Assembly: GCA_034521755.1 (NCBI GenBank)
Contig: JAXHMB010000003.1
Span: 503,878-567,877 of the forward strand
Direction of reading: 5' to 3'
Length of the DNA stretch: 64,000 nucleotides
Origin: Balneolaceae bacterium
GTDB taxonomy: Bacteria; Bacteroidota; Rhodothermia; Balneolales; Balneolaceae
Of the stretch, positions 34,896 through 37,457 are shown piece after piece. The first letter of the stretch is position 1, and every line of letters begins with the position of its first letter. A program made the position numbers and the translations under genes. The notes below the pieces were generated by a model that saw nothing but the letters and a program-made list of their open reading frames with translations, was not told the origin of the DNA and searched no databases.

Positions 34896-34938
34896 ACAAA
34901 ATAGGGTGGTAAGATTCTTCCAATAGAAATGCCCTCGA

Positions 34939-34983
34939 GAACCTGCGTCCGCCAGCCGGCGGATATGAGCCCGACGAGCTACC
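34939..34983 (-). repeat. Chimeric tRNA-fMet-derived motif, copy A
   Basis: gaacctgcg + tccgccagccggcgga + tatgagcccgacgagctacc. The 9-nt and 20-nt blocks are identical to the tRNA gene at 37321..37393. Confidence 0.85.
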
Positions 34984-35236
34984 GGTCGTACTTCTTTTCT
35001 ATCAAATCCCAGATAAACTTCCGCCCTTTAGCCGTCTTCAATTGTTTCTCTCTCCTCATTGCTTCAGCTTTCGTTTCGAACTCTTCGGTATGCACAATTT
35101 CCCAGGGCCTGAATTGAATCGTCCATCCTTTCTTTCCAAGTTTGTTATGAGAAAGCATGCGTGCATCCAGATCAGAAGTGAAGCCTACATATATTTTATC
35201 ATAAGAAGGGGAATACAATGCGTAAACAGTAAACAT
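34979..35236 (-). CDS. Small GIY-YIG nuclease-domain protein (YhbQ/URI-like), copy 1
   Basis: 85 aa, 'MFTVYALYSPSYDKIYVGFTSDLDARMLSHN...EAMRREKQLK' (GIY..YIG plus a conserved R/E). The stop codon lies inside the tRNA-derived motif. Confidence 0.8.
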   Translation of the reverse strand: MFTVYALYSPSYDKIYVGFTSDLDARMLSHNKLGKKGWTIQFRPWEIVHTEEFETKAEAMRREKQLKTAKGRKFIWDLIEKKYDR

Positions 35237-35313
35237 AAGCTCAGAATAAAAAAAGGCCTTAGCACCATGCTAAAGCCTTTTGATAGTGGCGGGGGCATCC
35301 CGAGGAATTGGGA

Positions 35314-35358
35314 GAACCTGCGCCAGCCGGACGGCGGATATGAGCCCGACGAGCTACC
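35314..35358 (-). repeat. Chimeric tRNA-fMet-derived motif, copy B (variant middle segment)
   Basis: gaacctgcg + ccagccggacggcgga + tatgagcccgacgagctacc. Confidence 0.8.
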
Positions 35359-35360
35359 GG

Positions 35361-35609
35361 TCATACTTCTTCTATCAAATCCAGACCAAACTTCCGCCCT
35401 TTAGCTGTCTTCAATTGTTCCTCTCTCCTCATTGCTTCAGCTTTCGTTTCGAACTCTTCGGTATGCACAATTTCCCAGGGCCTGAATTGAATCGTCCATC
35501 CTTTCTTTCCAAGTTTGTTATGAGAAAGCATGCGTGCATCCAGGTCAGCGGTGTAACCGACATATATTTTATCATAAGAAGGGGAATATAATGCGTAAAC
35601 AGTAAACAT
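35361..35609 (-). CDS. Small GIY-YIG nuclease-domain protein, copy 2
   Basis: 82 aa, near-identical to copy 1 (VGYTADLD, REEQLK; a different C-terminal tail). Confidence 0.8.
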   Translation of the reverse strand: MFTVYALYSPSYDKIYVGYTADLDARMLSHNKLGKKGWTIQFRPWEIVHTEEFETKAEAMRREEQLKTAKGRKFGLDLIEEV

Positions 35610-35679
35610 AAGCTCAGAATAAAAAAAGGCCTTAGCACCATGCTAAAGCCTTTTGATAGTGGCGGGGGCATCCCGAGGA

Positions 35680-35920
35680 CTCTGTTAGACTTACCATCTA
35701 TTGAGAATGGGGAAAATCTTACCATTTTTAAAATACCAGCCCACCGGAGACAGGCTAACCCGAGGAAGAGAGTTAGACTCTATGTCCCGAATCAGTCCCT
35801 CCGGTTGTTGGTATTACTCAAACCTAAATAGCATTCTAGCTGAAAACTATGAACAGAGTCAGGTCCGGTAATACCGTGCTGGTAATTAAAACATAAACCA
35901 TTGAAAGATGAGAATTATTG
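35680..35920 (+). ncRNA. Candidate IS110 bridge (guide) RNA region in the left non-coding end
   Basis: Contains cccgagga (35758..35765, identical to the left target flank), tcccgaat (35785..35792, reverse complement of the right flank attcggga) and gttagactc (35772..35780, matching the IS left terminus gttagact at 35684..35691). Confidence 0.4.
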
Positions 35921-36944
35921 ATGTCTACGACAAATCTTAGCAATACAAAATACTACGTTGGAATCGATATTTCGAAAGCAACCCTGGATTGCTGGATTCG
36001 ACCGGCCGGGAACCATCTGTGCTGTAAAAACGAACGCCAGTGGATTTGATCAGCTGTTACAATGGATGGGCGATCAAGGCTGCACGGTGGATAACACCGT
36101 TATGTGCATGGAGAACACCGGCATTTATGGAAAACGGTTGTTGGTGGCTCTCACTGAAGCCGGCTGGCCTACTGCGGTTGAGAAAACCACCGTAACCGAT
36201 AAGGTCGGTCCCGAGCACGACCGCAAAGAGGATGAGTTCGATGCGAGTCTTCTCGCTGAGTACGCGGATCGCTTTGCTGACCAACTTCATATAACCACCC
36301 CACCCGAAGAGGCCTTAGACCAGATAAAGCAACTCTATAGCGAGCGACGTCGACTGGTGCGCCAGCGGACAGCGACCAAAACCAAGCAAACCCAGTCGAC
36401 CCAGCAGCCGCATTGCCTACAACTGCTTCGACACGGATGGAACCGGCAGCTGGAGTTCCTGGACAAACAAATTGAGACCTTGGAGTCCCGGATCGCCCAA
36501 ATTATAGAAGCCCACGAGGGGCTTTGTAGCTATTTTACGCTGTTGCAGAGTATTCCTGGTGTAGCTGAAGTAACAGCTTGGTTATGGTTGATTCATTTTT
36601 ATGGGCAACCAAAGCTAAATCCAAAGAAAATTGCCTCTCGATTTGGAGTAGCCCCGCACACTCACGAGTCAGGATCTTCGGTCCGCGGGAAAACCAGATC
36701 GAGTGGTCACGGGGCCTCTGAAATGCGTTCAACCATGACCCTGGCGGCCCGTTCAGCCAGTACGCACTATGATCGTTTTAAAGCCTATAAACAAAAGAAA
36801 CTCGATGAGGGAAAATGTTGGCCTGTTGTACGAAATAATTTGGTAAATAAATTAATCACCATAATGTGTGCCATATGGAACAGCGGCCAGCCATACGATC
36901 CGGATCACACCTCACGATTTGACCGGGAGAAAAAAGCTGCATAA
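35921..36944 (+). pseudogene. IS110-family DEDD transposase, frame shift near codon ~30
   Basis: ATG 35921 gives 'MSTTNLSNTKYYVGIDISKATLDCWIRPAG', then a stop. The remainder, 'TNASGFDQLLQWM...GVAPHTHESGSSVRGKTR..', is in the 35958..36944 frame. Confidence 0.8.
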
Positions 36945-36971
36945 TACTTGCAAAAGTCATAGCATTCGGGA

Positions 36972-37016
36972 GAACCTGCGTCCGCCAGCCGGCGGATATG
37001 AGCCCGACGAGCTACC
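36972..37016 (-). repeat. Chimeric tRNA-fMet-derived motif, copy C
   Basis: Identical to copy A. Confidence 0.85.
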
Positions 37017-37270
37017 GGTCGTACTTCTTTTCTATTAAATCCCAAATAAACCTTCCGCCCTTTAGCCGTCTTTAGTTGCTTCTCTCTGTTCATTGCTTCA
37101 GCTTTCGTTTCGAACTCTTCGGTATGCACAATTTCCCAGGGCCTGAATTGAATCGTCCATCCTTTCTTTCCAAGTTTGTTATGAGAAAGCATGCGTGCAT
37201 CCAGGTCAGAGGTGTAACCGACATATATTTTATCATAAGAAGGGGAATATAATGCGTAAACAGTAAACAT
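37012..37270 (-). pseudogene. Small GIY-YIG nuclease-domain protein, copy 3, with a 1-nt insertion near the 3' end
   Basis: Same N-terminal 70 aa as copy 2. An extra g (ggaaggttta versus ggaagttta) shifts the frame, so the ORF reads through the tRNA-like motif to 36905. Confidence 0.7.
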
Positions 37271-37281
37271 AAGCTCAGAAT

Positions 37282-37312
37282 AAAAAAAGGCCTTAGCACC
37301 ATGCTAAAGCCT
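37282..37312 (-). terminator. Intrinsic terminator directly after tRNA-fMet; copies also sit in units 1 and 2 near 35249..35279 and 35622..35652
   Basis: Minus-strand hairpin ggctttagca-tgg-tgctaaggcc followed by T7. Confidence 0.7.
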
Positions 37313-37320
37313 TTTGATAG

Positions 37321-37393
37321 TGGCGGGGGCAGGATTCGAACCTGCGACCTTCGGGTTATGAGCCCGACGAGCTACCAGCTGCTCCACCCCGCG
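37321..37393 (-). tRNA. Initiator tRNA-Met (anticodon CAT)
   Basis: Minus-strand sequence cgcggggtggagcagctggtagctcgtcgggctcataacccgaaggtcgcaggttcgaatcctgcccccgcca. It has a clean cloverleaf, a 1:72 C-C mismatch and three consecutive G:C pairs closing the anticodon stem. CCA is not clearly encoded. Confidence 0.93.
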
Positions 37394-37424
37394 ATATAAA
37401 TTCATTTATTCATCGCGAACATTT

Positions 37425-37457
37425 GAACCTGCGTCCGCCAGCCGGCGGATATGAGCC
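37425..37457 (-). repeat. Solo truncated copy (D) of the chimeric tRNA-derived motif, upstream of the tRNA
   Basis: gaacctgcgtccgccagccggcggatatgagcc lies 32 nt 5' of the tRNA start, with unrelated flanks. Confidence 0.8.

Follow-up and report, generated by a model that had tools for sequence, protein, structure and literature searches.

Introduction

The closest experimentally studied counterpart of the element described here is SegB, a free-standing GIY-YIG homing endonuclease of T4/T6-type phages whose gene lies among tRNA genes and which cuts inside tRNA genes, with a preferred motif, RAWTSGAAC, that is the complement of the T-loop box (PMC13096335). SegB catalysis and phage recombination proteins are needed for the tandem amplification of a 718-bp unit composed of tRNA-Tyr and segB; the repeat junction is bounded by the tRNA 5' end and the segB 3' end, and the C terminus of the protein is altered as a consequence (PMC13096335). 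A second counterpart is provided by the fungal mitochondrial elements called mORFs, which create gene hybrids (atp6 in Allomyces; atp6, atp9, cox2, and nad3 in Glomus): the mORF enters the 3' part of an essential gene, whose 3' end is duplicated, with the gene intact upstream and a displaced, unused 3' copy downstream, and presence or absence varies among closely related lineages (PMC3630166). Here, we describe an array of miniature GIY-YIG cassettes beside the initiator tRNA (tRNA-fMet) gene of a Balneolaceae bacterium, contained in a 64,000-nucleotide stretch of a metagenome-assembled genome (MAG) (assembly GCA_034521755.1, contig JAXHMB010000003.1, positions 503,878 to 567,877) that is referred to below, at its full length, as the window. 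We consider it probable, at roughly 58%, that the array represents locally amplified, partly decayed copies of a miniature selfish nuclease cassette that parasitizes tRNA genes and is spread and amplified by break-induced homologous recombination.

The cassette belongs conceptually with free-standing homing endonuclease genes but differs from them in its minimal nuclease, its partner palindrome, its tRNA-gene duplicates, and its residence in bacterial chromosomes of several phyla. An earlier note on this DNA, made from the sequence alone, was aware of no described mechanism for such a module; SegB and the fungal mORFs are analogues (PMC13096335; PMC3630166), but neither our full-text literature searches nor the main GIY-YIG survey, which mentions tRNA only by way of a methyltransferase fusion, yielded a description of tRNA-linked mini GIY-YIG cassettes (PMC1564403).

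Results

Architecture of the array

The sole tRNA gene in the 64 kb is a minus-strand tRNA-Met(CAT) (Rfam tRNA score, 66.8 bits; coordinates of all array features are given in Table 1) with initiator features that can be read from the sequence, namely, a GGG/CCC anticodon stem and a mismatch at pair 1:72. The locus is flanked by two class III aminotransferase genes, AT411 (33561 to 34796) and AT456 (37586 to 38956). With units numbered from the tRNA outward along the minus strand, such that unit 1 is tRNA proximal and unit 3 is distal, the order is promoter, pseudo-tRNA, a 17-nt AT-rich spacer, tRNA-fMet, and three units, each of which comprises, in order, 11 nt of tRNA 3' end, a 34-nt terminator with a run of seven T residues (T7), a GIY-YIG open reading frame (ORF), and a 5'-truncated tRNA copy. 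The units are 358 to 361 nt long and share 94.7 to 96.4% pairwise identity in a gapped alignment of the three, and the spacing from unit 2 to unit 3 is 373 to 375 nt, in agreement with the ~375-bp units of ~95% identity that the earlier note had reported. The parts that it listed (solo motif, tRNA-fMet, terminators, ORFs, tRNA motifs, hairpins, and 11-nt copies) all lie where it had placed them, and the alignment bears out the FTSDLD/YTADLD patch and the divergent C-terminal tails. Three tandem modules are indeed present, but units 1 and 2 are split by a 1,288-bp IS110 element; likewise, an ORF length of 82 to 85 amino acids (aa) holds for units 2 (82 aa) and 3 (85 aa) but not for unit 1, in which an additional G yields a 121-aa frameshifted read-through that is probably a pseudogene.

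The repeated elements extend well into tRNA sequence. A 33-nt motif, GGCTCATATCCGCCGGCTGGCGGACGCAGGTTC, occurs three times without change (34939 to 34971, 36972 to 37004, and 37425 to 37457), with none expected in shuffled sequence; the three terminators are identical; and the 11-nt sequence TGCCCCCGCCA that opens units 2 and 3 lies within the tRNA itself at 37321 to 37331. The tRNA-derived stretch at each junction consists of tRNA nt ~17 to 37, a palindrome, 9 nt of the T-stem, a second hairpin (TCCC-AATTCCTC-GGGA), and the 11 nt. The 16-nt palindrome, TCCGCCGGCTGGCGGA (TCCGCC-GGCT-GGCGGA), takes the place of tRNA nt 38 to 47 in the unit copies, and the stop codon of the ORF overlaps the tRNA copy, with TAG inside the D-loop box GGTAGCTC. 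In unit 2, the palindrome is rearranged and the ORF tail has a 2-nt deletion; the last unit stops after the 5' strand of the T-stem, without the tRNA 3' end, and the tRNA-derived repeats carry the palindrome. The junctions thus hold more than 11 nt of tRNA-derived material (nt ~17 to 37, T-stem, and 3' end), and the earlier note's view that the tRNA 3' end physically defines the cassette is not supported; rather, the cassette is embedded in a longer tRNA duplication (nt ~17 to 76) that is full length in some lineages. In at least one lineage, the terminator of the locus is duplicated as well.

The "solo tRNA-like motif" at the promoter end is real but forms part of a whole pseudo-tRNA (37411 to 37484), the ends of which still pair (CATCGCG/CGCGATG). 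The native promoter now drives this pseudo-tRNA, with the working tRNA 17 nt beyond. Homologues of the pseudo-tRNA are found in three related loci (L089, L079, and L096; loci are designated by L numbers throughout) and in none of the relatives with a pristine locus. Because the promoter now feeds the pseudo-tRNA and homologous structures occur in these three loci, the arrangement suggests that the original resident tRNA was disabled and that the working copy is part of the inserted block.

Empty, relic, and occupied orthologous loci

Eighty metagenomic loci were fetched with AT456 as the anchor, independently of the cassette, and 40 of these were informative in that they held the tRNA-fMet gene and enough downstream sequence to judge occupancy. 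The tRNA stood alone in 26 of the 40 (pristine loci), palindrome-bearing tRNA relics were the only trace in 6, ORF fragments were the only trace in 2, a single ORF copy was present in 3, and two or more near-full-length ORF copies were present in the remaining 3; the comparison of relatives advocated in the earlier note has thus uncovered empty, relic, single-copy, and multicopy states. Pristine loci, which include several with an AT456 81 to 83% identical to that of the window, show the order AT411, 90 bp, tRNA, promoter, and AT456 and nothing else; they have no pseudo-tRNA, and in the empty-site relatives L081, L084, L088, and L142, the same promoter directly precedes the tRNA. Measured against them, the insertion in the window consists only of the three GIY-YIG cassettes and one IS110 element.

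Occupancy states are intermixed on the AT456 tree. The sister of the three-copy window, L079, is a relic; a tight trio is made up of a pristine locus (L109), a frameshifted single copy (L107), and a two-copy locus (L108); the members of the Gracilimonas clade are all occupied, with one to three copies, and those of another large clade are all pristine. Among the relics, L089 has lost the ORF and kept both palindrome-bearing tRNA copies, and L137 retains only tRNA, terminator, tRNA copy, and terminator; frameshifted copies were found in the window, L107, and L017. These data show that the cassette is nonessential, has been gained and lost, and has been amplified in place. Homing endonuclease genes go through a cycle of invasion, decay, and loss, and the spread of pristine, intact, decayed, and relic loci matches that cycle.

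In its T-stem, the window tRNA (GCAGG/CCTGC) is unlike the tRNAs of its pristine relatives (GGAGG/CCTCC), but T-stems are too variable among relatives for this difference to prove import. In L108, a cold-shock-protein gene with its own terminator lies between the second cassette and the native terminator (1934 to 2420) and is absent from pristine L109; it may be cargo or the trace of recombination with another locus. In 13 AT456-anchored loci, no more than 450 nt of contig remains beyond the downstream end of the tRNA, and many homologues are on contigs of 500 to 1,000 bp. The cassette probably breaks short-read assemblies, and occupancy is therefore likely to be underestimated.

A clade-specific palindrome in disabled tRNA copies

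The 16-nt hairpin of the earlier note is present, but its importance was underrated: the clade-specific palindrome proved to be the most conserved noncoding part of the cassette. The pattern TCCG[CT][CT]..[GA][GA]CGGA occurs 294 times on both strands of 1.06 Mb of loci, nearly always at cassettes, against a chance expectation that we ourselves estimate at ~14, and the palindrome is present in ~48 of 53 unselected regions downstream of the ORF. Its surroundings are tRNA derived: among 96 sites, 65 have a left flank with at least 14 of its 16 positions matching the adjacent tRNA, and 75 have a right flank with at least 13 of 16 matching. Palindrome type tracks the nuclease clade, and the position of the palindrome within the tRNA differs between clades. 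A functional tRNA is always kept; what disables the duplicates is the palindrome, together with 5' truncation and T-loop lesions.

Full-length, palindrome-bearing pseudo-tRNAs also lie upstream of the tRNA in L022, L035, and L044, and similar upstream look-alikes were seen in L016, L033, and L039; ARAGORN calls those of L022 and L035 tRNA-SeC(tca). The most extensive case is L022 (Mucilaginibacter sp. McL0603; complete chromosome CP188251.1), in which five ORF-less, full-length pseudo-tRNAs with a 92-bp period (2083 to 2466) precede an intact CAT tRNA that is followed by at least seven cassettes at 373 bp. Since such ORF-less arrays exist upstream of the tRNA, the look-alike can be amplified without the ORF.

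Other identities for these sequences were considered and rejected. A structured RNA in the window was dropped, since look-alikes fold no better than shuffles (z = 0.03, -0.98, and -0.35) and, in the consensus fold, only the palindrome hairpin is conserved, with few compensatory changes. A permissive Rfam scan of 34000 to 38500 returned only tRNA, together with two sX14 matches of 22 to 31 bits against an 80-bit cutoff that we attribute to chance and to the terminator hairpin. The palindrome begins at the canonical 37/38 site of a tRNA intron but replaces 10 nt, and it is too short for an Xer or att site, with no recombinase present.

In L069 (3250 to 3380), the tRNA-Asn copy downstream of the ORF is broken by four different TCCG..CGGA hairpins, and hairpin insertions can therefore accumulate within one tRNA copy. 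In L003, L004, L005, L007, L010, L011, L020, L093, and L098, the look-alike anticodon has changed from CAT to CTT (GGGCTCTTA) just before the palindrome; this change, in Gracilimonas and relatives, is either recurrent or inherited.

Recurrence beside other tRNA genes

A scan of one genome per species gave 78 loci with relatives of the ORF, 72 of them with a near-full-length copy, and so the search for the ORF beside other tRNA genes that had been suggested was productive. A genuine tRNA directly adjoins the ORF on the same strand at 58 of the 72 loci, with a CAT anticodon in 50 of these 58; most of the remaining 14 are cut by contig ends or have intervening pseudo-tRNAs. Adjacent CAT tRNAs were initiators in 49 of 61 cases and non-initiators in 12. 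Distant nuclease clades (42 to 57% identical) reside at Val, Asn, Ala, Arg, and candidate-phyla-radiation tRNAs, each with a palindrome in a partial copy of that same tRNA. Four copies with a 350-bp period at tRNA-Val(GAC) in Bacteroidales (L061) have TCCGCCAGCTGGCGGA in the variable region; two copies at tRNA-Asn(GTT) in Phycisphaeraceae (L074) have TCCGCCTGAGGCGGA in the 5' anticodon stem; and the anticodon arm is replaced by a palindrome with a 16-bp stem in the single copy at tRNA-Ala(GGC) in Ignavibacteria (L072) and by ATCCCGATT-TT-AATCGGGAT in the single copy at tRNA-Arg(TCT) in Chitinophagaceae (L065). In two candidate-phyla-radiation genomes (L066 and L076), a single copy is found at a tRNA without an ARAGORN call, with TCCGCC..GGCGGA in the D-loop of a 5' partial tRNA. 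At tRNA-Arg(CCT) in Cyclobacterium (L073; three copies at 317 bp) and tRNA-Arg(ACG) in Sunxiuqinia (L070; single copy), the palindrome CCTGCCTGCCGGCAGGCAGG is a pure D-loop insertion in a 3'-truncated tRNA copy that lies upstream of the ORF, which itself reads into the intact tRNA. Judged by sequence comparison, the same cassette design stands beside many tRNA genes in at least five phyla.

Arrays were present in eight genome loci, and because identity within arrays spans 77 to 100%, both recent and older amplifications exist. The ORFs of the window cluster with copies from Chitinophagales, Aliifodinibius, and Bacteroidales and not with those of Gracilimonas, and several genera cluster with themselves, within the little resolution afforded by an 85-aa protein.

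In L076 (Candidatus Gottesmanbacteria; 3230 to 3515), the adjacent tRNA is apparently interrupted behind the anticodon region by ~200 nt of inserted sequence, with its 5' part at ~3235 and its T-arm and 3' end at ~3485 to 3512, and a second, more distant GIY-YIG ORF follows (3621 to 3860). L070 and L071, two contigs of a Sunxiuqinia MAG, share 99.3% identity across 3,309 nt, and their point of divergence coincides exactly with the 3' end of tRNA-Arg(ACG), representing a segmental duplication or an island boundary at the tRNA; as a case of spread between paralogous tRNA genes, the pair was set aside as one 3.3-kb duplication that is uninformative on cassette mobility.

A bare Slx1/UPF0213-type nuclease domain

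All three ORFs of the window match the Pfam GIY-YIG profile (PF01541) over positions 2 to 74 of 78, with E values of 5.5e-16 to 1.1e-15 and scores of 58 to 59 bits against a cutoff of 22.6. Among 30 homologues, Y16, G18, R26, and H30 are invariant and Y5, N31, E51, and E63 are present in at least 90%, and this pattern of conservation repeats across 94 ORF copies. dN/dS is ~0.05 between Balneolaceae-type species, a value based on only seven usable pairs, and 0.1 to 0.4 within arrays. An AlphaFold2 model of the unit 3 protein, for which a 100% identical record from a Balneolaceae MAG exists, has a predicted local confidence (pLDDT) of 96.4. Together, these data show that the ORF encodes what should be a well-folded GIY-YIG domain with conserved catalytic-type residues and a history of purifying selection.

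A Foldseek search with the predicted model placed Slx1, At-HIGLE, and UPF0213 proteins at probabilities of 0.96 to 1.00; the best structural matches were Slx1 nucleases in complex with branched DNA (6SEH, 7CQ4, and 4XM5), the Slx1-like plant protein At-HIGLE (7WME), and both UPF0213 structures, with a TM-score of ~0.65 on the query, a root mean square deviation of ~2 Å, and 26 to 33% identity, and in the same model-based search, I-TevI and UvrC were far weaker matches. By sequence, the nearest Protein Data Bank entries were the UPF0213 proteins 1YWL and 1ZG2 (E = 3.4e-5 and 2.5e-4), with SLX1 matching weakly. The protein is the nuclease core alone, at 82 to 85 aa, without the C-terminal zinc-finger domain of the Slx1 type, and no residues lie past the catalytic core that could form a separate DNA-binding domain for a long target. 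By sequence and modeled fold, it sits in the Slx1/UPF0213 (URI-type) branch and resembles the bacterial UPF0213 form, not eukaryotic Slx1; lacking a separate DNA-binding domain, it is not a member of the Seg/I-TevI group and would only work like one.

This is a large family: at 50% identity, it comprises 4,537 clusters with E values of 0.001 or less and 391 with E values of 1e-10 or less. NCBIfam and PADLOC gave no family, defense, or toxin-antitoxin profile match for the ORF; nor is it a type III toxin-antitoxin component of the ToxIN kind, being a GIY-YIG protein rather than a ToxN/AbiQ endoribonuclease, having no PADLOC match, and being accompanied in the window by repeats with fold energies equal to those of shuffles. 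Searches of phage and viral collections turned up no copy of the cassette and only weak, partial matches to unrelated phage GIY-YIG proteins, and a profile scan of IMG/VR returned a single partial match, in a giant-virus bin. The position of the ORF is intergenic, between the tRNA terminator and the tRNA copy, and is not within an intron or intein.

Discussion

We suggest that the element has three parts, a free-standing 82- to 85-aa GIY-YIG nuclease of Slx1/UPF0213 type, its cognate GC-rich palindrome, and a partial duplicate of the neighboring tRNA in which both are embedded. The ORF would be expressed weakly through terminator read-through behind the strong tRNA promoter, and its product would break DNA in or beside tRNA-derived sequence. 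The palindrome is the preferred candidate for the cut site, as the recognition or structure-specific site of the nuclease itself, because it is conserved across phyla and changes with the nuclease clade and because the fold neighbors of the protein are structure-specific nucleases; alternatively, the cut may fall in the intact tRNA sequence that is replaced by the palindrome and the T-loop lesion, and the broken copies would thereby be immune. The break could then be repaired by homologous recombination through the tRNA-derived direct repeats that flank the ORF, such that an occupied template would supply an empty tRNA locus with a copy of the cassette, and repair out of register between sister chromosomes would lengthen or shorten the array. 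SegB supplies an experimental precedent for the steps of tRNA-gene breakage and recombination-driven amplification. Decay after fixation is evident in the frameshift of unit 1, the scrambled palindrome of unit 2, and the IS110 insertion, and relatives keep palindrome-bearing tRNA relics or nothing. The core of the earlier note's reading, a minimal selfish GIY-YIG cassette of the homing type that is tied to a tRNA and amplified in place, is upheld by the locus states and by the recurrence at other tRNA genes, but the boundary that it assigned to the cassette is not; the tRNA gene, which it took as the landing or cleavage site, is a candidate for that role.

Several considerations weigh against this interpretation. 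Its weakest link is the role of the palindrome; cleavage, of tRNA or palindrome, is a prediction from sequence and from analogy. At 85 aa, the protein is without the DNA-binding domain that gives Seg and I-TevI enzymes their long targets. If the intact tRNA were the target, the copy beside the nuclease gene would stay cleavable, and if the palindrome were the target, repair from an intact tRNA would erase the palindrome and not spread the cassette; neither version of the cut site explains the escape of the intact tRNA or how cutting of the palindrome would favor spread. In the trio L107, L108, and L109, the in-unit terminators equal the native terminator of the locus, and at least there, the flanking repeats therefore appear from the sequence to have been built or homogenized locally and not imported. 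The ORF is very strongly conserved and clusters by host in Gracilimonas, Ferruginibacter, Mucilaginibacter, and Cyclobacterium, features that would also fit long vertical residence with a host-level function, and the phage and viral collections offered no copy in a possible vector.

A host-beneficial role is accordingly the first alternative to be considered. A domesticated tRNA-linked nuclease, coexpressed with the tRNA and acting in tRNA or RNA metabolism or in repair at highly transcribed tRNA genes, would account for the strong purifying selection (dN/dS of ~0.05), for the clustering by host within genera, and for an ORF in the same position behind CAT-anticodon tRNAs in many Bacteroidota orders, with arrays and relics as by-products of unequal crossing-over; there is a parallel in the prokaryotic Slx1-like domain that is fused to a TrmH-type tRNA methyltransferase and for which a role in RNA metabolism has been suggested (PMC1564403). 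We nevertheless regard such a role as unlikely, given that the cassette is absent at 26 of the 40 orthologous loci, close relatives of the window included, that frameshifted and deleted copies are common, and that a host function leaves unexplained why the tRNA of each clade is accompanied by a disabled duplicate that bears a palindrome specific to that clade. Less likely still is a system that operates at the RNA level, in which the look-alikes would serve as decoy or antidote RNAs against their own nuclease, in the manner of a toxin-antitoxin pair, or against anticodon nucleases, and arrays would raise their dosage. The look-alikes of L022, L035, and L044 are full-length, cloverleaf-like genes that ARAGORN calls tRNAs; ORF-less tandem arrays of them lie upstream of the real tRNA, under its promoter, as with the five of L022; the palindrome stem shows some compensatory changes (TCCGCT/AGCGGA and TCCGTC/GACGGA); and look-alikes of CAT tRNAs depart from the tRNA at position 38, and VapC toxins cut initiator tRNA at 38/39. 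Set against these features, the copies of the window and most of those in Balneolaceae lack the 5' acceptor strand and have a broken T-arm, window copies fold no better than shuffled sequences, the hairpin is the only conserved structure, the palindrome occupies different tRNA positions across clades, and no known defense or toxin-antitoxin profile was matched.

The remaining alternatives are far weaker. Direct repeats derived from the tRNA 3' end border the insertion, though its last unit lacks that end, and the tRNA survives, as at islands inserted in tRNA genes; the partial tRNA copies could in principle be att duplications left after most of an integrase-borne element had been deleted. We judge this very improbable and agree with the earlier note on the point: the entire insertion is made up of cassettes and one insertion sequence (IS), with neither integrase nor cargo, no integrase was seen at any compared locus, a unit of 350 to 400 bp recurs in dozens of lineages and always with the nuclease ORF, and the tRNA duplicate begins in the D-loop and carries a conserved palindrome, unlike att sites. 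The scenario in which a single cassette was wrongly expanded to three during assembly, which had been named as grounds for refutation, has the lowest standing of all. The source is a MAG, and many homologues are on very short contigs, so the repeat clearly troubles assemblers, but the copies diverge at 4 to 5% of positions, three indels set them further apart, an IS occupies one junction, and comparable arrays appear in independent assemblies, including the complete chromosome CP188251.1.

Comparison of the selfish-cassette interpretation with described systems brings out what is particular to it. SegB is encoded by phages, is far larger, includes a DNA-binding part, and drives the amplification of a tRNA that still works. 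The cassette resembles it in that the ORF terminates within the D-loop of the tRNA copy and has a variable C-terminal tail, just as the SegB junction alters the C terminus, but the cassette protein is a bare 82- to 85-aa domain with Slx1/UPF0213 rather than I-TevI as structural neighbors, its setting is the bacterial chromosome, its tRNA copies are disabled, and every unit has a conserved palindrome. With mORFs, the cassette shares an endonuclease ORF joined to a duplicated 3' end of the host gene, the survival of that gene, and patchy occupancy in relatives; the fungal elements occupy protein-coding genes and encode mostly LAGLIDADG or large GIY-YIG enzymes, neither a palindrome nor a tandem array has been reported for them, and the inserted 3' end is foreign, whereas the repeats of L107 and L108 look local. 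Integrase-borne tRNA islands likewise leave the tRNA intact and place a partial tRNA copy at the far end of the insert, but the cassette measures ~360 bp, is without integrase or cargo, and has a palindrome that breaks up a duplicate beginning in the D-loop. REP elements are scattered throughout the genome, and their RAYT transposases belong to the HUH enzymes; a short GC-rich palindrome that is paired with one small enzyme gene and whose type tracks the enzyme clade is common to both systems, but cassette palindromes occur almost only inside tRNA copies by the ORF, and the enzyme is a GIY-YIG nuclease. The best relatives of the protein in sequence and structure, UPF0213 (1YWL and 1ZG2) and Slx1 (6SEH, 7CQ4, and 4XM5; At-HIGLE, 7WME), do not supply a model for the arrangement: Slx1 has a C-terminal zinc finger and works with Slx4, in contrast to the core-only cassette protein, and no tRNA-linked, palindrome-linked context for UPF0213 proteins was reported in the literature searched.

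A broader proposal, which we advance tentatively and at somewhat less than even odds, is that these cassettes are a previously unrecognized class of miniature mobile element, a bare Slx1-like GIY-YIG nuclease with a clade-specific palindrome, that parasitizes tRNA genes in at least Bacteroidota, Balneolaceae/Rhodothermia, Ignavibacteria, Planctomycetota, and candidate-phyla-radiation bacteria. The palindrome would be recognized as sequence or as an extruded hairpin, and a break between tRNA homologies would lead to recombination into any copy of that tRNA gene and to amplification; at loci such as that of the window, the resident promoter-proximal tRNA would be disabled, and the cell may depend on the tRNA copy of the element. 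If the selfish-cassette interpretation is correct, the element, at ~360 bp and with an 85-aa protein, would be the smallest nuclease-based selfish element so far in bacterial chromosomes, and homing-type parasitism of tRNA genes would extend beyond phages and organelles. It would also give the uncharacterized UPF0213 proteins their first biological context and account for pseudo-tRNA calls ("tRNA-SeC" and undetermined) and contig breaks by tRNA-fMet in Bacteroidota assemblies, and a tiny nuclease with a short, clade-specific palindromic site would provide a testable system for the specificity of minimal GIY-YIG enzymes.

Annotated features and the insertion sequence

Table 1. Features of the array and its promoter, in minus-strand order from the promoter outward (positions in the window)
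Feature	Positions	Strand	Evidence or remarks
Native tRNA promoter, TTGACA-18-TATTAT	37498-37527	-	11/12 consensus match; now reads into the pseudo-tRNA
Promoter-proximal pseudo-tRNA	37411-37484	-	Start CGCGGG kept; D-arm lost; palindrome 37434-37449, then decayed T-arm
Intact initiator tRNA-Met(CAT)	37320-37393	-	ARAGORN, Rfam
Terminator hairpin + T7, unit 1	37282-37315	-	Identical copies at 35621-35654 and 35248-35281
GIY-YIG ORF, unit 1	36905-37270	-	121-aa read-through via +1 G; Pfam PF01541, E=8.8e-16; frameshift in alignment
5'-truncated tRNA copy, unit 1	36970-37016	-	tRNA nt ~17-37, palindrome 36981-36996, T-stem 5' strand
IS110-family insertion sequence	35680-36967	+	Transposase ORF 35958-36944; outside the cassette proper
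11-nt tRNA 3'-end copy opening unit 2	35660-35670	-	Alignment
GIY-YIG ORF, unit 2 (82 aa)	35361-35609	-	Pfam, E=1.1e-15
5'-truncated tRNA copy, unit 2	35312-35358	-	Rearranged palindrome 35321-35338
Second small hairpin, unit 2/unit 3 junction	35298-35313	-	TCCC-AATTCCTC-GGGA, in place of the T-loop (GAATCC)
11-nt tRNA 3'-end copy opening unit 3	35287-35297	-	Alignment
GIY-YIG ORF, unit 3 (85 aa)	34979-35236	-	Best-preserved copy; Pfam, E=5.5e-16
Terminal 5'-truncated tRNA copy	34937-34983	-	Palindrome 34948-34963; array ends 9-11 nt past the palindrome

The IS110-family element that separates units 1 and 2 takes up half of the interval originally reported. Its 328-aa DEDD transposase matches PF01548 (DEDD_Tnp_IS110; E = 5e-17) and PF02371 (Transposase_20; E = 9.6e-14), and the NCBIfam model transpos_IS110 (IS110 family RNA-guided transposase) scores 134.5 bits, slightly below its 140-bit cutoff. 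With boundaries set by comparison with the uninterrupted junction, the element, present as a single copy in the window, sits exactly within the small hairpin at the junction of units 1 and 2, TCCC/AAT/TCCTCGGGA.

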